Origin: an uncultured Bacteroidaceae bacterium
GTDB lineage: Bacteria; Bacteroidota; Bacteroidia; Bacteroidales; GCA-2748055
Direction: 5' to 3'
Length of the DNA: 45,106 nucleotides
NCBI GenBank assembly: GCA_964583445.1
Contig: CAZOXI010000001.1
Location: forward strand, 1 to 45,106
The stretch's first letter is position 1, and each line of letters starts with the position of its first letter. Positions 3,642-16,580 of the stretch are shown in pieces. Both the position numbers and the translations under genes were made by a program. Below the pieces are notes generated by a model that saw only the letters and a program-made list of their open reading frames with translations, made no database searches and had not been told where the DNA came from.

Positions 3642-4247
3642 ATGGTAAGAATAGGAAGGCAAATACCACATTTTGAGCACGTTGATCTCTCTTCGGTTGA
3701 GGCTGCTTTTTCCAAAGACAGGGTGTACAGGTACAGCCTGTCGATGCGTTTCAGCGATACATTAATGGACACGGGCAGGGCCAAGACAGTTGCCGTGATC
3801 ATGAAAAATCCGAGTGCTGCAGATGCGTTCCGGGCAGATGCCACGATCAGGAAGGTGGAGACTTTTGTATACCATCGTTTCCCGGATGTACGCTGGCTGC
3901 ATATACTGAACATCTTTGCATTCCGCGCCACGGAGCCGGGCGACCTGCACCGGGCCTACGCAGAGGGGGGAGCCATGCAGGTGATCGGAGCCGATAATGA
4001 CCATGTGATCGGAAAGGTGGCAGGTGCATCTGACTATGTGATCCTGGCCTGGGGAAACAACAGCGGGATCGATACGGTGTTGTATGAAGAGCGGGTCATC
4101 CGTATTAAGCATCTTTTGTCAGAGGTTCCCGCAGGGAAAATTTATTGTATAACAGGGAAGCAGAAAACAAAACACCCCCTGCATGGTCTAATGTGGGGAT
4201 ATGCGTATGAAATCTGTCCCGCGATTGAATATATGCAATTACAATGA
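3642..4247 (+). CDS. DUF1643 domain-containing protein
   Basis: RVYRYSL...VAVIMKNPSAADA...DATIRKV...ILNIFAFRAT...VILAWGN matches the DUF1643 pattern. The track start at 3636 is a TTG and the first ATG is at 3642. The stop overlaps the next start (ATGA at 4244-4247). Confidence 0.8.
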   Translation: MVRIGRQIPHFEHVDLSSVEAAFSKDRVYRYSLSMRFSDTLMDTGRAKTVAVIMKNPSAADAFRADATIRKVETFVYHRFPDVRWLHILNIFAFRATEPGDLHRAYAEGGAMQVIGADNDHVIGKVAGASDYVILAWGNNSGIDTVLYEERVIRIKHLLSEVPAGKIYCITGKQKTKHPLHGLMWGYAYEICPAIEYMQLQ

Positions 4248-6172
4248 TATCAGTTGATAACGTAACCATACGATTCGGAGGATTTACTCTTTTTGACAGC
4301 ATCTCATTTCAGCTCAACAAAAATGACCGCGTGGGGCTGGTGGGCCGCAATGGTGCCGGGAAGACCACCTTGCTGAACCTGATTGAAGGGCGGCAGCAGC
4401 CTGACGAGGGCAGCGTGGTGCGTTCCGGTGACACAGACATTGGTTACCTGCCCCAGCAGATGAAGCATTCAAGTTCCAGGACCCTGTATAATGAAACATT
4501 GCAGGCATTCGGGCATATCCTGGAGATGGAAGCCAGGATCGCCGCCCTGAACAAGGAGATGGAGGAGCGGAGGGATTATGAATCCGAGGGGTACATGAAA
4601 TTGATCGAGCAGCTTGGGACACTGACAGAGCGCTTCGAGCTTGAAGGTGGCAGTGCCATCCATGCAGATGTGGAGCAGACCCTGGTCGGCCTGGGATTCA
4701 GCCCGGCGGACATGGACCGTTCCGTGACCGAATTCTCCGGGGGATGGAGGATGCGGATCGAGCTGGCAAAGATCCTGTTAAGGAAACCGGATTATATCCT
4801 GCTGGATGAGCCCACCAATCACCTGGATATTGATTCCATCCAGTGGCTGGAAACTTACCTGTCCAATTTCGATGGCGGGGTGCTGCTTATTTCCCACGAC
4901 AGAATTTTTCTCGATCGTGTTACCAACCGGACCCTGGACCTTTCGTTGGGAAACATTTATGATTACAAAGTCGGTTATTCTGAATATGAAAAGCTGAAAC
5001 GGGAACGAATCGAAGTCCAGTCAGCCTCCTACCAGAACCAGCAAAAAATGATCAGGGATACGGAAAAGTTCATTGAGCGTTTCCGTTACAAAGCCACCAA
5101 GGCTGTGCAGGTGCAATCGCGTGTCAAACAGCTGGAAAAACTTGACAGGATCGAGGTGGAGCAGGAGGATACATTACAAATGAATCTCCGCTTTCCCGTT
5201 GCGAAGCGATCCGGGAAAATAGTGGTTGAAGCAGAGAAATTATCGAAATCATATGGTGACAACGAGGTGCTGAAGGATGTGGACCTTGTGATCCAGCGGG
5301 GAGAGAAGGTGGCGTTTGTGGGCCGTAACGGGGAGGGAAAGACCACCCTTTCGCGTATCATTGTCGGTGAACTGGAGTACAGCGGGGGATTCCGGTTGGG
5401 GCATAACGTGGAACTCGGCTATTTTGCGCAGAACCAGGATGAGCTCATGGATGAGAACAAGACCGTGTTTGAAACGGTGGATGCAGTGGCGGTGGGCGAT
5501 ATCCGGACAAAGATGCGGGATATTCTCGGGGCTTTCCTGTTCCGGGGTGAGGACGTCGATAAAAAGGTGAAAGTGTTGTCAGGAGGCGAGCGTTCGCGGC
5601 TGGCCATGGCGATGATGATCCTGCAGCCGTTCAACTTGCTGATTTTGGATGAGCCCACCAATCACCTGGATATGAATTCCAAGGATATCCTGAAAAATGC
5701 ATTGCTGCAGTATGACGGGACACTGATCGTGGTCTCGCACGACCGGGAATTCCTCGATGGACTCGTTGACAAGGTGTATGAATTCCGGAACAAGGGGATC
5801 AAGGAATATATCGGGGGAATCTTTGCGTTCCTCGAAAAGCGGAAGATCCGTTCCATCCGCGAGATCGAACGGCGCACCGGTACGAAGAAGTCCGTTCCGG
5901 AAAACCGTTCCGGGTCAAAGCAGGACTATGAGGCGAAGAAAGCATTTGAGCGTAAGCTGCGGAAGTATGAGCGTTCCGTAAAGGAGGTGGAGGACGCCAT
6001 AGCGGCGATGGAAAAAGAGCTCAGCGAGATGGACAGAATAATGGCAGATCCGGACAATATTGAAGACCAATCGCTGTTTGTTTCTTACAGGGAGAAGCGT
6101 CAGAAGCTGGACCGGTTAATGGAACAATGGGAAAAGGCATCCGCCGATCTTGAAAATTTGAGCAGCAGATGA
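4244..6172 (+). CDS. ABC-F family ATPase (two ABC cassettes, no TM domain)
   Basis: Two Walker A motifs (GRNGAGKTT, GRNGEGKTT), two signature motifs (FSGGWRMR, LSGGERSR), an inter-domain linker and a C-terminal coiled-coil. Confidence 0.9.
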   Translation: MISVDNVTIRFGGFTLFDSISFQLNKNDRVGLVGRNGAGKTTLLNLIEGRQQPDEGSVVRSGDTDIGYLPQQMKHSSSRTLYNETLQAFGHILEMEARIAALNKEMEERRDYESEGYMKLIEQLGTLTERFELEGGSAIHADVEQTLVGLGFSPADMDRSVTEFSGGWRMRIELAKILLRKPDYILLDEPTNHLDIDSIQWLETYLSNFDGGVLLISHDRIFLDRVTNRTLDLSLGNIYDYKVGYSEYEKLKRERIEVQSASYQNQQKMIRDTEKFIERFRYKATKAVQVQSRVKQLEKLDRIEVEQEDTLQMNLRFPVAKRSGKIVVEAEKLSKSYGDNEVLKDVDLVIQRGEKVAFVGRNGEGKTTLSRIIVGELEYSGGFRLGHNVELGYFAQNQDELMDENKTVFETVDAVAVGDIRTKMRDILGAFLFRGEDVDKKVKVLSGGERSRLAMAMMILQPFNLLILDEPTNHLDMNSKDILKNALLQYDGTLIVVSHDREFLDGLVDKVYEFRNKGIKEYIGGIFAFLEKRKIRSIREIERRTGTKKSVPENRSGSKQDYEAKKAFERKLRKYERSVKEVEDAIAAMEKELSEMDRIMADPDNIEDQSLFVSYREKRQKLDRLMEQWEKASADLENLSSR

Positions 6173-6222: not shown

Positions 6223-7503
6223 ATGAGAAATATACATTACATCATATTGTCCTTGTTCCTGGTTGCAGGATGCACTGTCACACGGAATGTGAACGTTCCC
6301 GTTTCGCAGTTCTCTTCGATGTACAATCCCAGTGAGTTCTCCTTGAGTGCAGACTACCGGTTGTACCACATCAATGATGATATGACCTCCATGTACATCC
6401 GGTTGTTCCCGCGTGAGTTGCTGTTCAACCAGGCCAATGAGGCTGCTGAATACCGTGCACTGGTTGGGATCACCTATATTATATATGAGCTGGGGGAGGG
6501 ACGGGAGATTGTTGCGAAGAGCGATTCCACTACTTTCCAGATCAAACTAGGCAGGCAACATGAGCAGAATACCGCATATTTTACTACCCGCGTCCTGAAT
6601 ATAAGAAGTGGCAAACAGTACATGATCAGGATCGAATCGAAGGACATGAACAGGGGCTCTGTGGGCCTGGAACATATTTATATTGACAAGCGTAACAGTT
6701 TCTCTGCGCAAAATTTCAGTGTTGTTTCGGCGCAGACAGGGTACCCCCGTTTCCTGGATTATATCTCACCCAACGAGGTGTTTAAGCTTGATTACCGTGT
6801 AGAAGGATATGATACCATTTTTGTAGATTTTATTAAGTTCAGGAATCCTTATCCGAGGCCTCCCATCACGATGAATGCACCCTCTTTTTTCGAGGCAGCG
6901 CCGGATACCACCTTTGCCCTGGCATGGGCTGACAGTACGATTTTCACTTTGCCGGAGAAAGGAATGTATCATTTCCGGGTGGATACGACCCGGTCCGAGG
7001 GGATCACCCTCCACCGTTTCGGACCGGATTTTCCGCAGGTCCAGTCTGAAGAAGCACTGATGGAGGCGTTGTTCTACGTCGCGACACTTACCGAGTATAA
7101 CAATATGCGGCGGGAGGAAAATAAGAAACTCGCAGTGGATAATTTCTGGCTGGCGCGGGCCTCATCGATGGAGCGCTCGCGGGAATTGATCCGGGTGTAT
7201 TACAACCGTGTGGTTTATTCAAATCTCTATTTTACTACCAATCGGGAGGGATGGAAGACCGACCGGGGAATGATCTTTATTTTATTCGGTCCGCCGGATC
7301 GCATTCGCTCGGGGGGCTCAGAGGAGCGGTGGTACTATATTTCAAACCGGCAGGGGAAAATTATTGAATTCATCTTCGACCGTGTGCCCGGACAGTATTC
7401 AAATCATGACCTGGTCTGGCGAAAAAACGGTCAGTCGATGGGTTACGTCTCTTCTGCGGTCAGTGCATGGCGATCCGGTAAAGTTTACTCATTAAGCAGG
7501 TAA
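6223..7503 (+). CDS. GWxTD domain-containing lipoprotein
   Basis: Lipobox LFLVAGC near the N-terminus and a GWKTDRGMIFILFGPPD motif near the C-terminus. Confidence 0.85.
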   Translation: MRNIHYIILSLFLVAGCTVTRNVNVPVSQFSSMYNPSEFSLSADYRLYHINDDMTSMYIRLFPRELLFNQANEAAEYRALVGITYIIYELGEGREIVAKSDSTTFQIKLGRQHEQNTAYFTTRVLNIRSGKQYMIRIESKDMNRGSVGLEHIYIDKRNSFSAQNFSVVSAQTGYPRFLDYISPNEVFKLDYRVEGYDTIFVDFIKFRNPYPRPPITMNAPSFFEAAPDTTFALAWADSTIFTLPEKGMYHFRVDTTRSEGITLHRFGPDFPQVQSEEALMEALFYVATLTEYNNMRREENKKLAVDNFWLARASSMERSRELIRVYYNRVVYSNLYFTTNREGWKTDRGMIFILFGPPDRIRSGGSEERWYYISNRQGKIIEFIFDRVPGQYSNHDLVWRKNGQSMGYVSSAVSAWRSGKVYSLSR

Positions 7504-10236: not shown

Positions 10237-10307
10237 GAATTATTTGGAATTCTGTTGATCAAATTAATTACTTTTCGCTGAAATACTTCAAGCTAACTGA
10301 GAATAAT

Positions 10308-10315
10308 TATATTTG
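10308..10315 (+). promoter_or_regulatory. candidate Bacteroidota -7 promoter element (TATATTTG) for the sigma factor gene
   Basis: Exact TAnnTTTG match 43 nt upstream of the ATG at 10358. Confidence 0.3.
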
Positions 10316-10357: not shown

Positions 10358-10936
10358 ATGAAGAGCTTTTCAGATGAAGATATCATACTTGGCCTTAGAA
10401 AGCGGGACAACCAGGTGATCCAGTTCATCTACAAAAATGATTTCGGTAAGATAAGTGCGTTGATCACCAACAACAACGGATCTGATGATGATTCAGAGGA
10501 TGTCTTCCAGGAGGCGTTGATCATTATTTTCAAGCGATTACGTGAAGAGCCCGATTTTGAACTCACCAGTACCTTCAGTACCTATTTATATTCGGTTGCC
10601 CGCTTGATCTGGCTGAAGAAGCTGCGTGATACGAAGAAGATGGAGGTCACCGAGCTGAAGCGGGAGATGGAGGATTACATTGAATTCGAAGAGCCTCCTC
10701 CTGTCGCAGACAAGGACTTGCGCCTGGCGGTATACCAGCGTAACCTGAAGCTGATCCCCGAAGATTGTCAGAAAATCCTCACCTTAACGGCCAGGGATGT
10801 TGCCGCAAAGGATATTGCGGAGAAGCTGGGTTTCAGGAGTGATTCGTATGTGCGCAAGAGAAGACATTTCTGCAAAGAGTTTCTCGTGAACAGAATCAAG
10901 GAAGACAAGGAGTACCAGGCGTTGATTGAAGATTGA
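10358..10936 (+). CDS. RNA polymerase sigma-70 family factor, ECF-like
   Basis: 192 aa. Region 2-like DSEDVFQEALIIIFKRL...TYLYSVARLIWLKKLR and region 4 HTH (CQKILTLTARDVAAKDIAEKLGFRSDSYVRKRRHFC). Confidence 0.8.
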   Translation: MKSFSDEDIILGLRKRDNQVIQFIYKNDFGKISALITNNNGSDDDSEDVFQEALIIIFKRLREEPDFELTSTFSTYLYSVARLIWLKKLRDTKKMEVTELKREMEDYIEFEEPPPVADKDLRLAVYQRNLKLIPEDCQKILTLTARDVAAKDIAEKLGFRSDSYVRKRRHFCKEFLVNRIKEDKEYQALIED

Positions 10937-10974: not shown

Positions 10975-13821
10975 TTACTTTCTTTTTACCAGGGCTTTCC
11001 TGATTTGTTTCCTGTAGATCACTCCTAAAACAATAATTGTAAATAACACCAGGATCAGCACCAGGTAGGATGATGCTGAGGTGGTATAGAGGGGTGTGTT
11101 ATCGCCCACCATCAGGAATGCAGACCAGAAGTAGGGATTTGCTTTCAGGTTGTCCGACGAATTGATATAATCGATCTTCGCCTGTCGCAGTGCTTTTTTC
11201 TTGCTTGATCCCTTCTTCAGGTTTTCATAGAAGTTGCTCATCAGTTCTGCACTGGAGAGGTCTGAAACCTGCCAGAGGGTCATAACGATACTTGGACACC
11301 CGGCATAGATAAATCCGCGTGCCATGCTCATCATTCCTTCCCCTTTTTGCATTTTTCCAAAGCCGCTGCTGCACGAGCTGAGCACCACCATGTCGGCATT
11401 CAGTGGCAGGTTGTATATTTCATACGTAAACAGGTCATGGTCCTGCGTCGTGTCGCTGAAGTTCCTGGTGAAAGCCAGTTTGGAGTACATCGGATTTTCG
11501 TCATCCATGATCGTATGCATCGCCAGGTGCAGCACCGAGTAATCAGATGCCAGTGCCTTGAAATTTGCTTCTGATGCTGCAGAATCGAGGTAGATATCTG
11601 CCGTCACTGTGTTAGAGATGTTCTTCACCTCTTCTTCTGCACCCGGCAGTGGCATCAGGAAATCGCGTTCTGACTGTCGGTTCCAGATGGATTGCAGCTC
11701 TTCATCCAGCAGGTTCTGATATTCGGGAGCGAATGCAAGCACTTTGTTATTGGGGGATTTGGTCCGGATCCGCTCGCTGAACAGCAGGGTAGAGGAGTAG
11801 GAGTACCCCACTGAAAGGTCGTATATGAGATAGGGCAGGTTCCTGTAATTGGGGCGGGTATCGTCGAAATCGCTGCTTGTCAGAAATGATTCAAAGGGCA
11901 GGTACATGATTGCGCCGTCGGGCACAAAGGTGATCTCCCGGCTATCCGTCACCTCCAGCACCGGTGCCACCAGGATATCGTAGAAGTATTTGGCCAGTGC
12001 CGTGTAGTTTTGAAAGGTTTGGTGCACATCATTGCTGAAATCCTGGTTCTGCAGCAGCGAGAAGTAGTCGAAGCACAGTTGAGGAAAAAGTGAATCTACA
12101 GGCTCCGTAAGGACTTCGATGTTCTCTTTATCGATCACAAATGTCGTAAGAATGGAATCTGACAGGACGTACTCGACGAGGCATTCTTTGTGATTTAAAT
12201 GATCCTGTATCTGTTTCGGTGCAATAAAGTCTTGGCTATATTTTAAATTAAAATAGTTTGGAAAATTATTTTCAAGAGAATCTAATAACAAATTGTATCT
12301 ATTCTTTATTTTTAAATAGGATTGATTAAAACTTGCAATAATTTTTTCGTTTGGATTTTCTTCGGCTCTTTCTTTATAAATTAATTCAGATAGGTGATTT
12401 AATTCCTTTTTTAATGAGTCTTCAAGAGTTTTTAAATTATTGGGTAGATCAGAAAATTTTATTGCCTCACCACTTTTAATTTCAGAATATAATGAAAAAG
12501 CTTTCATGTTTTCTGCATACAAAAAGGCTTTGAATAAATATTTTACATCCTCAGTTGTTTTATATAATCTAACAGCTACATCAATAGCTTCGTGAATTAT
12601 CGATATACTGGTACTAGATTCAATAAATATACTTTCTTCATTGCGCATATGAAGTCTAAAGACCATTAAATACTCAATGCTTTTTGAAAAATTGTTTAGG
12701 GATTCAATTAAATCATCTAGATTGTTGTTTTGTGCATATAATTTTAGAGAAGCGTTACCGTAAAGTCTATGATAGTCGATAATTGTTCTATTAAAAGATT
12801 GTTCATTTAAAATGTTTTGGGCAGGATCTGAATTTTCAATGTTAAACTCCAAATTACTAAATCCATCAGATAACCAATCTATACAGCTTATATAGTCATT
12901 CTTCAAATAGTGTATTTGTCCAATTAAAAGGTAAGTCTGATATAGTTTTTCAAAATGAGTAGTTTTGCCGCTTTCCTTGTATTTAATATTCTCTAATAAA
13001 TAAGCAAGAGCTCTGTTAAGATCTCCTAATTTTGTATAAATAGAGGCTGCTCTAAAATTATAAATCAACAAATACTTATACTTACTTTTGAGATTTTTAT
13101 CATAGATTTCCTTTGCTAATCTAGTTTGGTCTAAAGCTTTCAAGTAATAATATTCATCTTCTGAATAATCACCTTTATTTTGATAAGCTTCAGCTAAAAA
13201 CATATGCTTATTGAACAGAAGGTCATTAACTAGTTCTCTTTGTTCTTGATTAAGATTATTATCCTTTATATCTAGACTGCTCAAGATATCAATTGCTTCA
13301 TCATTTCTGTTTTGCTCAACTAAAATATTTCCTATATTGACATAAACCTGCGCGTATTGATATTTATCTGTAGTCTGTTTATTTTCAAAAAATTCTAAAC
13401 AATATCTATAGTAAAGTTCTGCTTCTTTATAGTCTGAGTAATTAAAATAGATGTTTGCCTTTGTATTATAGATATAACCCAAATAAGGAGAGTTCGGATT
13501 GTTTAAGATAAAATATTTCTCAGCTAAATTTAGATGATGTAAAGCCTTTTTGTAGTTATTTTTGTTTCTATATACGACTCCTAAATTAGCATTTGTTATT
13601 ACTGTATTTTCATCATTAACACCATAATAAGCTTTTTGATACTGTAATATCTTATTATAGTAGTACTCGGCACTATCATATTGTCCAGCATTATAGAATT
13701 TAAAAGCTAGTGTATCATAACTCTTAATCGTTCTGCTTCTAAAGATTGAATCCTGATTCTGTGCATTAGAGTTAATACAGAGAAATGATGTCAGTACTAA
13801 TATAGATAATACTTTTTCCAT
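10975..13821 (-). CDS. TPR-repeat / CHAT (caspase-like) domain protein with signal peptide and C-terminal TM anchor
   Basis: 948 aa. Signal peptide MEKVLSILVLTSFLCINSNAQ, then about 540 aa of Y/N/K-rich TPR-like repeats. The CHAT domain has an intact His (LHLAMHT) and Cys (VVLSSCSSG) dyad. C-terminal helix YLVLILVLFTIIVLGVIY followed by a basic tail. Confidence 0.9.
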   Translation of the reverse strand: MEKVLSILVLTSFLCINSNAQNQDSIFRSRTIKSYDTLAFKFYNAGQYDSAEYYYNKILQYQKAYYGVNDENTVITNANLGVVYRNKNNYKKALHHLNLAEKYFILNNPNSPYLGYIYNTKANIYFNYSDYKEAELYYRYCLEFFENKQTTDKYQYAQVYVNIGNILVEQNRNDEAIDILSSLDIKDNNLNQEQRELVNDLLFNKHMFLAEAYQNKGDYSEDEYYYLKALDQTRLAKEIYDKNLKSKYKYLLIYNFRAASIYTKLGDLNRALAYLLENIKYKESGKTTHFEKLYQTYLLIGQIHYLKNDYISCIDWLSDGFSNLEFNIENSDPAQNILNEQSFNRTIIDYHRLYGNASLKLYAQNNNLDDLIESLNNFSKSIEYLMVFRLHMRNEESIFIESSTSISIIHEAIDVAVRLYKTTEDVKYLFKAFLYAENMKAFSLYSEIKSGEAIKFSDLPNNLKTLEDSLKKELNHLSELIYKERAEENPNEKIIASFNQSYLKIKNRYNLLLDSLENNFPNYFNLKYSQDFIAPKQIQDHLNHKECLVEYVLSDSILTTFVIDKENIEVLTEPVDSLFPQLCFDYFSLLQNQDFSNDVHQTFQNYTALAKYFYDILVAPVLEVTDSREITFVPDGAIMYLPFESFLTSSDFDDTRPNYRNLPYLIYDLSVGYSYSSTLLFSERIRTKSPNNKVLAFAPEYQNLLDEELQSIWNRQSERDFLMPLPGAEEEVKNISNTVTADIYLDSAASEANFKALASDYSVLHLAMHTIMDDENPMYSKLAFTRNFSDTTQDHDLFTYEIYNLPLNADMVVLSSCSSGFGKMQKGEGMMSMARGFIYAGCPSIVMTLWQVSDLSSAELMSNFYENLKKGSSKKKALRQAKIDYINSSDNLKANPYFWSAFLMVGDNTPLYTTSASSYLVLILVLFTIIVLGVIYRKQIRKALVKRK

Positions 13822-14025
13822 CTATAAAATATTCAAGCTGGTATAAACATTGCAGCAAGGTAATAGAAAATTGTTATTTTTTCAAAAAATTAAATACCAC
13901 ATAGTCAATGAGTTATAAAATTAATTTCACTTTTTTTTATTTTTTTGGGTAACGTTTTCTGGTGATTTGGAATAAAGGGTTGAACGATCAACAAAACAAG
14001 TATTAACCCTAATTGAAAAAACGTC

Positions 14026-14142
14026 ATGAAAACTTCAAAAACAAACATCGAGAATTTTGCAATTGATGCAATGACCCAGGAAGAAATGAATTTTTTAACA
14101 GGTGGTGGAGAACCTATTGATATGATTATTCCTCCCAGGTAG
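14026..14142 (+). CDS. 38-aa double-glycine-leader peptide precursor (not in the ORF track)
   Basis: MKTSKTNIENFAIDAMTQEEMNFLTGG/GEPIDMIIPPR. Gly at -1/-2, hydrophobic residues at -4, -7, -12 and -15, and Glu at -8 fit the GG-leader consensus. ATG start, TAG stop. Confidence 0.55.
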   Translation: MKTSKTNIENFAIDAMTQEEMNFLTGGGEPIDMIIPPR

Positions 14143-14204
14143 TAAAAAATTCCAGAAGCTGTTTATAAATTGATTCAGCAAATTGAGATAATACTTCGAT
14201 ATTA

Positions 14205-14860
14205 CTCAACGGAAACTATCCAGTCACGGAAACGTCCGGGCTGTAGCAAACAAGGAAACAAGTACCGGTGGCATACGGTGTGTGCGGAGCCGGATGACAT
14301 ACACTCAGTCATGAGATGAAGCAGACCGCTGCTATTCAAAGGTGGAGTCGAACGAGCCGGACCAGGAAACGAACTGGTAAGGTAGCATTTCGGAACACCC
14401 GGGGATACACGGAACTTGCGGAAGATGATCCAGATCATGAAGCTGGGAAGGAACGCGACCAGGCATTGAAGCGTGCCGGAAGTGCGAAGCTCAGGAGGAG
14501 CATGTGGACAGGAAAATCAGGATGACCAACAAATGGAACCTGTATACCCCCCTGGCACACAACCCTCTGAAAGTGCCGCGAATAAATGCACGCAGGGATC
14601 CATACAATGGAGCCAGAGATGCCCGATAGCGCAAAGCTAAGAAAGAGCAGCGAACGGGAGCAGTCCGGGGAATCAGAAAATGAAACTGACGGATGCCCGA
14701 AGATCGCAACGCTCAGTCAACGCTGAGAATCTGGCAGAAAAGAGACGGAACATAAGCTCAGACTTCTGAATACCATACCGTTACCGGGAGAGATCCAGGT
14801 AAACCGATGTAGGATGAACAGCGAGCTGATCATTGACAACCTATTATGAGAGAATATTTA
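14205..14860 (+). ncRNA. candidate long noncoding/leader RNA: ORF-poor, purine-rich, GGA/GGAAC-dense block
   Basis: No ORF longer than 78 aa on either strand, and none looks protein-like. I counted 29 GGA trinucleotides and 9 GGAA(A)C motifs, all on the plus strand. G+C is about 57% in a sampled 60-nt line, against about 20% in the adjacent block. Several short hairpins are present, e.g. ATGAT-ccag-ATCAT and CTCAG-tcaacg-CTGAG. Confidence 0.3.
14211..14236 (+). promoter_or_regulatory. candidate ECF-type promoter GGAAAC-N16-CGTC
   Basis: GGAAAC at 14211-14216, a 16-nt spacer, then CGTC at 14233-14236. It sits at the left edge of the purine-rich block, upstream of the anti-sigma-like gene. Confidence 0.3.
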
Positions 14861-14882
14861 TGAAAAACCGATACATATAGTT

Positions 14883-15665
14883 ATGAAACGAGACAGGCAC
14901 ATTATCCAGAAGTACCTCGATCATGACCTATCAGACAAGGACATGAAGAGGTTCGAAGCGGATCTTGAAAGCAGTCCCGAGCTTCAGGCAGACCTGGGAT
15001 TACACCAGGAGATTGATGAAGCACTGGCCGATACAGAAGTATTGAGCTTTAGGGATCAGCTGACGGATCTGCGGAAAGAGACCAAGAAGGACGGAAAGAA
15101 TGCGAAAGCACCGATCCGTTTCAACAAGCCCTGGCATTATGCTGCATCAGCAGCCATTGCCCTGATCCTGGCCATCGGCCTTGCTTCAGTACTTGACAGA
15201 CCACTGAGCAATAAGGATTTGCTTAAAAAGTATTACAAACCTTACGAGGTGGCACTGATGAACAGGTCGCTCAACGAAAATTTGACGACAGCGGAAAACA
15301 TGATGGCAGAGACCTACCTCACTAAGGCCAGCCTTTTCTACCAGGAAGGGGATTTCAAAAATGCCATCGAGCACTTTGAGCTGTTCCTCGAGAACCAGCC
15401 GAACGATGCCGGCGCACAACTTTACCTCGGTATCTCTTTTTACGAAGAGGACAGGTATCACGATGCAGAAGCATCACTGACCAAAGTGGTCGATCACCAG
15501 GACAACCTATATGTCGATAAGGCAGAATGGTACCTGGGACTCTGTTACCTGGCACTGAACGAGAATGACCTCGCACGCAGAAAGTTTGCAGGACTCGCAT
15601 CAGGGAACAGTGACAAGGCTGAAGAAGCGAAGCAGTTATTGCGCAAGATCAAGGTGCGTGATTAA
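14883..15665 (+). CDS. anti-sigma-factor-like single-pass membrane protein with extracytoplasmic TPR domain
   Basis: The N-terminus resembles anti-sigma domains (IQKYLDHDLSDKDMKRFEADLESSPELQADL). One TM helix (AASAAIALILAIGLASVL), then TPR repeats (YQEGDFKNAIEHFELFLENQPNDAGAQLYLGISFYEEDRYHDA). Confidence 0.7.
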   Translation: MKRDRHIIQKYLDHDLSDKDMKRFEADLESSPELQADLGLHQEIDEALADTEVLSFRDQLTDLRKETKKDGKNAKAPIRFNKPWHYAASAAIALILAIGLASVLDRPLSNKDLLKKYYKPYEVALMNRSLNENLTTAENMMAETYLTKASLFYQEGDFKNAIEHFELFLENQPNDAGAQLYLGISFYEEDRYHDAEASLTKVVDHQDNLYVDKAEWYLGLCYLALNENDLARRKFAGLASGNSDKAEEAKQLLRKIKVRD

Positions 15666-15725: not shown

Positions 15726-16580
15726 ATGGACGAAAACCCAACATACGAGGAGTTGATGGCTGCAAACCGTAAGCTTAGGGATAAGGTGGATTGGCTGGAA
15801 GGCGTCTACCACACTCACCGCGATGCCGGGCTGCAGGTCAGATCAAGGTTCCTGTCCAATATCACACACGAGATCAGGACACCCATGAACGCGATCCTCG
15901 GGTTTTCAGACCTGCTGACAAACAGTTCTCTTACAGACAGCGAGCGGGAGGAATATATTGAGTACATCTCCCACAACAGTAAAACGCTCTTAAAAATAAT
16001 GGATAACATCATCGACCTGACACTCCTCGAGACTGATAATCTCGAAATGAAAAAGGAGGAGGTCTTCGCCGAAGACCTGTTCAGGGAGATCTACGAGTTC
16101 TATAACTCGTAGGTCGTCAGGGGGATGAGTTACAGGGTGGCGCTTCTGATGACGACACCCACCAGGTACAGACGGATCACAGTCGACGCTGATGGCTACA
16201 GGCTGCACAGGATCCTCGACAACCTGGTCAACAACGCGATCTCCCAACAGTCAAAGGGGGTGGTCGAAATGAAGATGGATATCAAGGATGAGAAAAAAGT
16301 CTTTTTTACCATCGTCAGCGAGAGAAATGAGCTGCTCGAAGAAAGAGCCCAAATGATCTTTGAAAATAATGGTGACACGGATGACTGGCACAATCACCTC
16401 GATGCCACGGGCCTGGCCTACAAGCTGGCACGTGACCTGGCAAAAGCCATGGGTGGTTCTGTCAGACTGGTGCAGGTAGACGAGAAAAGAATCGGCGTGT
16501 GCATGGAACTACCGGTAAAGAAAATCGGTATTGCCCATAAGAAAGACACCCGAAAGAAGATATCCACGCTGTTGAATTAA
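15726..16580 (+). pseudogene. sensor-less histidine kinase interrupted by an in-frame TAG (16110-16112), with a degenerate ATP-binding domain
   Basis: ORFs 15726-16112 and 16125-16580 share one frame. The first carries a coiled-coil and an H-box (FLSNITHEIRTPMNAILGFSDLL). The second carries an N-box (HRILDNLVNNAI) but no DxGxG G1 box. Confidence 0.7.

Follow-up and report, generated by a model that had tools for sequence, protein, structure and literature searches.

The sequence analysed here, further referred to as the window, is a stretch of 45,106 nt from an uncultured Bacteroidaceae bacterium (GenBank assembly GCA_964583445.1, contig CAZOXI010000001.1). An open reading frame (ORF) of 38 codons at 14026..14142 on the plus strand encodes the peptide MKTSKTNIENFAIDAMTQEEMNFLTGGGEPIDMIIPPR and ends with the stop codon TAG. 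It lies between the divergent gene of a TPR-CHAT protease and the gene of an anti-sigma-like membrane protein, in a locus that also encodes a sigma factor of the extracytoplasmic function (ECF) type and a soluble histidine kinase. As judged from its pattern of conservation, the ORF is a real, translated and conserved small gene. The family to which it belongs is new, had no name before and comprises at least 119 distinct peptides from uncultured Bacteroidales/Bacteroidota.

The peptide gene and its family

An earlier reading of the window made from the letters alone (the sequence-only reading) had described the ORF as an unannotated double-glycine (GG) leader peptide, divergent from a CHAT gene 204 bp away and lying in the same AT-rich block. 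Translation of 14026..14142 gave the same peptide, and the 204-bp distance to the TPR-CHAT gene (10975..13821, minus strand) is as described there. The word "unannotated" is true in a loose sense, given that public gene callers do call the ORF and its homologues, as "hypothetical protein". The AT-rich block has to be defined more narrowly: the ORF itself has 35% G+C and sits at the edge of a block with 27% G+C, made up essentially of the intergenic region and, within the CHAT gene, the TPR half.

Relatives of the ORF were collected by an exact-word search, which yielded four, by an exhaustive search, which yielded more, and by scans of genome and metagenome collections, which added 9 further loci (individual loci are denoted by L with a number). 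A profile built from 20 members retrieved 126 clusters, and the conservation statistics given below were computed for 119 distinct peptides. All 126 clusters have lengths of 38–84 aa and contain no Pfam domain; those bearing a name are annotated as "hypothetical protein" in metagenome-assembled genomes of Bacteroidales/Bacteroidota. The family merits a model of its own even if it should turn out to be only a regulatory upstream ORF (uORF), as its genes are otherwise missed or left "hypothetical".

The reading frame is kept in 14/14 distinct DNA versions, with all indels comprising whole codons, and the variable columns of the 38 codons are distributed over codon positions 1, 2 and 3 as 16, 14 and 29, respectively. 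The Nei-Gojobori dN/dS ratio equals 0.32 in frame (0.29 after the GG), compared to 1.12 and 1.08 in the shifted frames, where 33–70 stop codons are encountered. Purifying selection on the ORF, which the sequence-only reading had proposed as a check, is thus evident from a dN/dS of 0.32 against approximately 1.1 out of frame. The frame is open in 119 distinct versions, down to 44–46% identity for the most distant aligned members.

The ORF is divided by the GG pair into two segments:

14026..14106, plus strand: leader segment, residues 1–27, ending with Gly26-Gly27 (TIGR04149 match at residues 1–28)
14107..14142, plus strand: predicted mature part GEPIDMIIPPR and the TAG codon; Cys-free, with the motif D-h-h-x-P-P (h, hydrophobic)

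Counting back from Gly27 as −1, the spacing listed in the sequence-only reading (Gly at −1 and −2, Leu at −4, Met at −7, Glu at −8, Met at −12, Ile at −15) is correct for the window peptide itself. Across the family the GG pair is kept in 119/119 peptides, being located at residues 26–27 in the window peptide. Three hydrophobic positions are retained in all 119 as well: −4 (Leu, Ile or Val), −7 (Met or Leu) and −12 (Ile, Met or Leu), while −8 is Glu in 106/119. Position −15, which had been counted among the conserved ones, does not belong there, since Ile occurs in 2/119 peptides and the residue is mostly Lys or Thr. The residues conserved in this region are Ala at −16 (112/119) and Phe at −17 (119/119), which precede it. 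The family leader has 25–27 residues and can be written as M-K-T...F-A-x-D-A-[MI]-x-x-x-E-[ML]-N-[FY]-L-x-G-G. The classical GG-leader consensus is LSxxELxxIxGG; given the positional conservation in 119 peptides, the leader therefore reproduces this pattern as MTxxEMxxLxGG.

A strict regular expression for the spacing (−15, −12, acidic −8, −7, −4 and GG) matches only the peptide ORF among 475 small ORFs of the window. At the composition of the window 0.04 matches are expected per random 45 kb, and no match was obtained in 100 AT-rich simulations, so that leader-like spacing is not a common property of random AT-rich ORFs. The sole curated model matched by the window peptide is TIGR04149 (GG_sam_targ_CFB), with 21.2 bits and E = 1.9e-4 at residues 1–28, the cut-off being 25. 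This match, together with the spacing kept throughout the family, supports assignment of the leader to the double-glycine type.

Membership in known precursor families was considered and rejected for TIGR04149, PF14406 and ComC, all scores being below the respective cut-offs; the peptide family is not a member of TIGR04149. For the window peptide PF14406 was not reported at E ≤ 1, and the matches to PF03047 (ComC; 12.3 bits, gathering threshold 20.4) and to the mersacidin-type leader (14.8 bits, threshold 27.6) are weak and sub-threshold.

The part following the GG pair consists of a short variable linker, the motif D-h-h-x-[PA]-P (115/119, with the Pro-Pro pair kept in most members) and, usually, a C-terminal Lys/Arg or a polar tail. 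Lys or Arg is the C-terminal residue in 90/119. The length of this part varies from 11 to 27 aa with a median of 16 (119 peptides), the window peptide having the shortest one. Cys after the GG is found in 0/119, so that the short, Cys-free core noticed in the window peptide is a property of the whole family. Three subfamilies were distinguished. Subfamily 1, to which the window peptide belongs, has ..EPxD-hhh-PP and a tail. Subfamily 2 has the form MKTVDFKSFAKDAIKEtELNYLKGG...DPVEDLVHPPx[KR], with peptides ending in ...DPVEDLVHPPEK, and subfamily 3 is described by MRTLNL.FFA.DA.SKNEMNYLKGG...EKGGDLIIPPxK.

Genes and signals around the peptide gene

The features of the locus other than the peptide ORF are as follows:

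10358..10936, plus strand: ECF-type sigma factor, 192 aa (TIGR02937, Sigma70_r2, synteny in all long loci)
10975..13821, minus strand: caspase-like protease of the TPR-CHAT type, 948 aa (several TPR families; Pfam CHAT at 1.5e-54)
13947..13976, plus strand: promoter-like motif GGGTAACGTTT-N11-GGAATAAA, candidate ECF-type −35 and −10 boxes, about 80 nt upstream of the ATG
13977..14025, plus strand: near-invariant 49-nt 5' leader preceding the ATG, AGGGTTGAACGATCAACAAAACAAGTATTAACCCTAATTGAAAAAACGTC (alignments of 9–17 loci)
14143..14882, plus strand: purine-rich spacer without ORFs, 740 nt (61% purine, 48% G+C)
14221..14243, plus strand: hairpin 1, CAGTC-A-CGGA / AACG loop / TCCG-GGCTG (RNAalifold)
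14264..14293, plus strand: hairpin 2, ACCGG-TG-GCATAC-GGT-GTGTGC-GGAG-CCGG, invariant in the close lineage
14883..15665, plus strand: anti-sigma-like membrane protein, 260 aa, with a helical N-terminal domain, a predicted transmembrane helix and a putatively periplasmic domain of three TPRs
15726..16580, plus strand: soluble histidine kinase (HisKA and HATPase_c), intact at 284 aa in L002

The order of genes is MscS channel, ECF sigma factor (plus strand), TPR-CHAT protease (minus), peptide (plus), spacer, TPR protein of 250–260 aa (plus), soluble HisKA/HATPase kinase (plus), DUF3127 (minus) and FKBP (minus). It is common to L002, L010, L011, L017, L019, L020, L022 and the short contigs, and a single orthologous locus was found wherever the contig reaches far enough. 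Among loci where the identity of the anti-sigma-like protein falls to 50–54%, a diverged peptide gene is still present in L020 and L022, and L021 shows the end of a truncated peptide gene, ...DLIHPPRR*. Conservation next to CHAT orthologues, suggested as a check in the sequence-only reading, was observed in every contig that reaches far enough upstream. That reading named CHAT as the only context; the CHAT link stands, but the wider module of ECF sigma factor, anti-sigma-like protein and histidine kinase was missed, and it is more informative than CHAT alone. By its gene order, the peptide gene is a fixed part of a sigma/TPR-CHAT/anti-sigma-like/kinase locus in a clade of uncultured Bacteroidales.

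The motif GGGTAACGTTT-N11-GGAATAAA has a single match in the window and none in shuffled sequences. Exactly one copy is present in 16/16 loci with available upstream sequence, and the distant loci L020 and L022 keep it as GGGTAACGTTT-N11-GGAATTAA. Its build, a spacer of fixed length but variable sequence between two conserved blocks, is that of a promoter. The −35 boxes recognised by ECF factors of the Bacillus sigX/sigW type have the consensus TGtAACnTTT, and the GGGTAACGTTT block resembles it. By this analogy we infer that the motif is an ECF-type promoter and a candidate target of the neighbouring sigma factor. The 5' leader between the motif and the ATG is as conserved as the ORF; it is A-rich and lacks a Shine-Dalgarno sequence, which is the usual situation in Bacteroidota. 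A separate promoter for the anti-sigma-like gene is not apparent; therefore the peptide gene is probably the first cistron of a peptide/anti-sigma/kinase operon.

The sigma factor scores 45.6 bits with the TIGR02937 sigma70-ECF model, above the cut-off of 42.9, and matches Pfam Sigma70_r2 at 4e-5; it is accordingly assigned to the ECF group, the sigma-70 proteins having regions 2 and 4 only. The region upstream of its gene (10296-10313, CAGAATAATTATATTTGT) is invariant in 4 lineages and contains the box TATATTTG. The housekeeping −7 consensus of Bacteroidetes is TAnnTTTG, and TATATTTG fits it. An autoregulated sigma promoter was rejected, since the upstream region has this housekeeping-type box and lacks a motif of the peptide type; therefore the sigma gene seems to be transcribed constitutively and not to be autoregulated. 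The ECF classification paper contains no text on CHAT.

By its sequence, the N-terminus of the CHAT protein resembles a signal peptide, and its C-terminal transmembrane helix carries a basic tail. The motifs of the His/Cys dyad, HLAMH and LSSC[SN]S (LSSCSS in the window), are conserved in 6 CHAT orthologues. Given these features, it is predicted to be a membrane-anchored protease facing the periplasm. The two halves of the gene differ. The G+C content of the N-terminal TPR half (approximately 12100-13900) is 27–33% in all 6 orthologues, compared to 46–51% in the CHAT half, and the protein identity outside the near-clonal pair of the window and L002 is 28–55% in the TPR half and 52–85% in the CHAT half. 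In near-clonal contigs (L010 vs L014, L005 vs L013) the TPR halves cannot be aligned, having about 50% nucleotide identity, while the flanks are 97–100% identical. Recent horizontal transfer as the source of the AT-rich block was rejected, as the low-GC TPR half is present in every orthologue. The low G+C content in all orthologues and the loss of alignment between near-clones thus point to an old hypervariable sensor cassette rather than to a recent transfer, and suggest that the TPR half is a sensor domain under diversifying selection or cassette exchange.

The segment 14090-14142 of the window, which contains the last part of the leader and all of the linker and mature peptide, is a polymorphism hot spot among otherwise near-identical contigs. 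For L012 and L014, where the hot spot lies at 684-821 and 1649-1792, respectively, 41 differences were counted in 3.7 kb, 24 of them within nucleotides 68-131 of the ORF (64 nt); for L013 and L008, 19 of 35 differences fall within ORF nucleotides 63-105 (43 nt). As the changes include synonymous ones and a 6-nt indel, they resemble imported alleles and not point hypermutation. Allele types recurring in different lineages are GG-GEPIDxIIPP and GGGxDEPIDMVIPP. Hypermutation of the core by a diversity-generating retroelement was rejected: the changes involve all bases and a 6-nt indel, and no reverse transcriptase is encoded in the window. Near-clonal strains thus have two hot spots of recombination here, one in the mature part of the peptide and the other in the AT-rich TPR half of CHAT.

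The anti-sigma-like protein has 257 homologues. It matches the NCBIfam "antisigma" model NF052375 at 1e-5 (residues 10–118, below the cut-off) and zf-HC2, also sub-threshold, at 0.19. The AlphaFold2 model (pLDDT 71) contains three N-terminal helices, a helix at 83–103 and a confident domain of three TPRs at 136–255. In the Foldseek search the TPR part alone found matches, the neighbours being YbgF, Rap-Phr and TPR domains whose structures were solved in complex with short C-terminal peptides. The kinase gene contains an in-frame TAG at 16110-16112, where L002, L008 and L010 have AAG (Lys). The TAG is present also in an independent Logan assembly; therefore the kinase is truncated or split in the window strain.

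The spacer is probably an intercistronic or 5'-untranslated RNA. Its indels relative to the related loci are not multiples of three and break any frame. The spacer length is 204–300 nt in some lineages (29–35% G+C) and 674–741 nt in others. Hairpin 1 has a compensatory change from C:G to A:U (RNAalifold), and its inner stem, CGGA/TCCG in the window, is GGG/CCC in L011 and GAA/TTC in L016. Equivalents of hairpin 2 with other stems are present in L009, L019 and L021; the stems encountered outside the window include GTATGCA/TGCATAC, GAATGCA/TGCATTC and ACATGCA/TGCATGT. The two hairpins may constitute a locus-specific RNA motif; with Rfam nothing was found in the whole window at the gathering threshold, and nothing in 13850-14950 at E ≤ 10. 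A 194-aa ORF on the minus strand across the spacer of L002 was dismissed as spurious, being a Ser/Leu/Pro-rich antisense of purine-rich DNA whose copy in the window is broken by 1-nt and 4-nt indels. The window spacer has no tandem repeats. In the sister lineage L017 the long spacer (6541-6785) is unalignable to that of the window and equally purine-rich, and it contains 12.4 tandem copies of the 20-nt unit GAAAAGGGGACAACGTACCT.

Approximately 31 ORFs of the window were scanned or had already been typed. Among them there is no C39 peptidase, ABC exporter, HlyD-type partner or radical-SAM protein, in accordance with the absence of a nearby exporter stated in the sequence-only reading. The sole ABC protein of the window (4244-6172) is of the soluble ABC-F type. 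Neither the window nor the related loci contain a radical-SAM/SPASM protein, ATP-grasp enzyme, lanthipeptide maturase or immunity gene. None of the PADLOC defence models matches the sigma factor, the CHAT protein, the anti-sigma-like protein, the kinase or the peptide.

Described systems and the proposed role of the peptide

Peptides with GG leaders exported by peptidase-containing ABC transporters (PCATs) include class II bacteriocins, the ComC/CSP and BlpC pheromones and GG peptides of Gram-negative bacteria (Dirix et al. 2004, cited in PMC8939145). The peptide studied here shares with them a leader of about 27 residues ending in Gly-Gly and the spacing of hydrophobic −12, −7 and −4 and Glu at −8 (MTQEEMNFLTGG compared to LSxxELxxIxGG). 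Like the pheromones among them, it has a short, unmodified-looking, Cys-free product, and the alleles of the mature part are polymorphic among strains. In contrast to PCAT systems, there is no adjacent transporter, membrane-bound sensor kinase with a response regulator, or immunity gene, and the gene resides in an ECF/anti-sigma-like/TPR-CHAT locus instead. The "GG-Bacteroidales" precursors of TIGR04149/PF14406, which give rise to peptides made by the ribosome and modified after translation (RiPPs), adjoin the radical-SAM maturases TIGR04148/TIGR04150 (PMC4573289). They share both the phylum and the type of leader with the peptide family, which differs from them by its sub-cut-off scores, by the absence of a Cys-rich core and of a radical-SAM/SPASM neighbour, and by the motif D-h-h-x-P-P, which is specific to it.

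Among described systems DdvS/DdvA of Myxococcus xanthus comes closest; it consists of an ECF sigma factor and a transmembrane anti-sigma factor carrying a periplasmic TPR-CHAT (PMC11506125). The CHAT of DdvA has been proposed to be a self-cleaving site-1 protease that starts regulated proteolysis of the anti-sigma factor; the authors expect its activating ligand to be a protein or a peptide, and DdvA-like fusions are reported only in Myxococcota and one Comamonas (PMC11506125). Common to both systems are an ECF sigma factor and a TPR-CHAT with a His/Cys dyad that is anchored in the inner membrane and periplasmic, here as predicted from the sequence. Whereas DdvA is a single polypeptide, here CHAT (10975-13821, minus strand) and the anti-sigma-like protein (14883-15665, plus strand) are encoded by separate genes with the peptide gene between them. 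The anti-sigma-like protein also differs from DdvA in having a small TPR domain of its own and no zinc-binding Cys/His motif. Moreover, unlike DdvS/DdvA, the locus contains a GG-leader peptide gene and a soluble kinase, and no CBASS/CRISPR genes.

Ligand-triggered proteolysis of anti-sigma factors occurs in RsiV with lysozyme and in RsiW/PrsW with antimicrobial peptides, and short peptides are bound by TPR receptors of the RRNPP type (Rap-Phr). The analogy with the window locus is one of concept: a short peptide or protein ligand would bind an extracytoplasmic or TPR sensor and switch a transcription factor, the TPR fold being one that grips short peptides. RRNPP receptors are cytoplasmic and found in Firmicutes; the likeness is conceptual and by the TPR neighbours in Foldseek.

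Given the constant place of the gene between the CHAT protease and the anti-sigma-like factor, its product is probably secreted and connected with a switch of envelope signalling, and not a bacteriocin. The following mechanism is put forward tentatively, with somewhat less than an even chance of being right. A C39-peptidase ABC transporter encoded elsewhere in the genome would export the peptide and cut it, and the peptide would act on the flanking periplasmic TPR domains, modulating the CHAT-dependent release of the sigma factor. Transcription would start at GGGTAACGTTT-N11-GGAATAAA as an ECF-type promoter, and with the peptide gene as the first cistron of the anti-sigma/kinase operon, peptide production would follow sigma activity. 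Cleavage after the Gly-Gly pair (Gly27) would leave an unmodified, Cys-free product of 11–20 residues, here GEPIDMIIPPR. In the periplasm or after release, this product could bind either the anti-sigma-like protein, at its TPR domain of the peptide-binding type, or TPR-CHAT, and thereby tune cleavage of the anti-sigma factor by CHAT and release of sigma. The peptide would thus serve as a feedback ligand or as a signal to the producer itself or its kin, and not as a toxin.

Several observations weigh against this mechanism. No C39 transporter was found in the window or in any related locus. By itself this is not unusual, because the genes of GG peptidases often lie apart from those of the precursors (PMC8939145). 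Among 14 members scanned with TIGR04149, four gave E ≤ 0.01, the window peptide with 21.2 bits being the best and still under the cut-off of 25. The promoter was assigned by resemblance. The anti-sigma assignment is derived from sub-threshold matches and architecture: a PDB profile search with the N-terminal domain gave no significant match, so that we infer "anti-sigma" from the architecture and the neighbourhood. If a peptide of 11–20 residues were exported past the outer membrane, it would have to find a way back into the periplasm. Finally, the alleles of the peptide and of the TPR cassette assort independently, L012 and L014 differing almost only in the peptide. Co-variation of the peptide with the TPR cassette or the anti-sigma-like gene in the manner of pherotypes was looked for and not seen: L013 and L008 have identical TPR sequences and different peptides, while L005 and L013 have the same peptide type and unalignable TPR sequences. 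Therefore no local co-varying receptor was found, and a strict pherotype model is weakened.

A more specific version of the signalling role is a pheromone circuit, in which the sigma-dependent GG peptide would be exported and sensed in the periplasm by the anti-sigma-like TPR domain or by TPR-CHAT, site-1 cleavage of the anti-sigma factor by TPR-CHAT would free sigma, and autoinduction would follow. We regard it as doubtful.

While GG-leader peptides and ECF sigma/anti-sigma switches are well known, periplasmic TPR-CHAT proteases gating a sigma factor have been described only just now. GEPIDMIIPPR and its relatives can be synthesised as candidates for a ligand or an output, and the locus further provides two candidate receptors and a candidate target promoter. 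Should the link prove functional, peptide signalling in Bacteroidota would be opened to experiment, and the activation of TPR-CHAT-gated ECF sigma factors would become testable. Under the pheromone circuit, the peptide would represent the first natural ligand for a periplasmic TPR-CHAT/ECF switch, and the signalling, autocrine or from cell to cell, would be of a new type in Bacteroidota; we know of no established quorum sensing by peptides in that phylum. In that case, the recombination of peptide alleles and the hypervariability of the TPR cassette would hint at strain discrimination.

Alternative explanations

The peptide might be a substrate, a decoy or a securin-like pseudosubstrate of TPR-CHAT, contacting the conserved CHAT domain via D-h-h-x-P-P, or else a direct partner of some other protein of the module, with the GG-like N-terminus serving only as an amphipathic helix or for targeting along a different route. 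The peptide gene always adjoins the CHAT gene, conservation is seen in the peptide motif as well as in the CHAT domain, in contrast to the hypervariable TPR half, and many members carry an acidic-x-x-Asp (caspase-like) string or Lys/Arg immediately after the PP. A precedent is separase, which is restrained by a pseudosubstrate inhibitor (PMC11506125). A protease-binding tail, however, has no need of the export-type GG consensus observed at every key position in 119/119 peptides, and the Pro preceding Asp is absent from subfamily 3 (EKGGDLIIPP). We consider this explanation unlikely.

If the ORF is a cis-acting leader peptide (uORF), its translation, perhaps with pausing at Pro-Pro, would remodel the hairpins of the spacer and set the expression of the anti-sigma-like protein and the kinase, the product itself having no function. 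The position directly upstream of the anti-sigma-like gene on the same strand, with no separate promoter evident, speaks for this explanation; so do the two hairpins with compensatory changes 60–150 nt downstream and the Pro-Pro pair kept in most members within D-h-h-x-[PA]-P (115/119). Arrest peptides, however, usually conserve the C-terminal part alone, whereas here purifying selection acts along the whole peptide, including the N-terminal MKT..F-A and the GG. Moreover, the stop lies anywhere from 1 to 13 codons away from PP, neither the distance to the hairpins nor the spacer length (204–741 nt) is constant, and the hairpins are not followed by a terminator-like U-tract. Because the whole leader is conserved, the role of a mere uORF is disfavoured, and we regard it as improbable.

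About equally poor prospects are assigned to a bacteriocin or RiPP precursor of the Bacteroidota GG family, matured and exported by enzymes encoded elsewhere, its position in the locus being incidental. The only curated model touched, TIGR04149, is labelled "rSAM-modified RiPP"; GG precursors of Bacteroidota are numerous, with the peptidase often unlinked (PMC8939145); and a shuffling of mature-part alleles is seen among the strains, as in bacteriocin loci. These points are countered by the scores below the TIGR04149 cut-off (E ≤ 0.01 for 4/14 members) and the lack of a PF14406 match, by the absence of Cys (0/119), and by the absence of radical-SAM, ATP-grasp, lanthipeptide or immunity genes in the window and the loci. 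The core motif is conserved and not hypervariable, and the sigma/anti-sigma synteny is kept in every contig of sufficient length. A toxin is disfavoured for these same reasons, that is, because of the conserved, Cys-free core, the absence of maturase and immunity genes and the consistent synteny.

The last explanation, a chance ORF in a conserved regulatory or RNA region, finds support in the flanking non-coding DNA, as the promoter-like motif and the 5' leader are conserved no less than the ORF, but it is hardly tenable against the codon periodicity, the dN/dS of 0.32 (1.1 out of frame), the frame-preserving indels and the 119 open versions.

One further polypeptide, P0006 (311 aa), contains five tandem repeats, each resembling a GG leader followed by a short core (..KKGIQKLAAFGLNGKEAEFVKGGGLP..), and may represent a precursor with several cores that belongs to another family.

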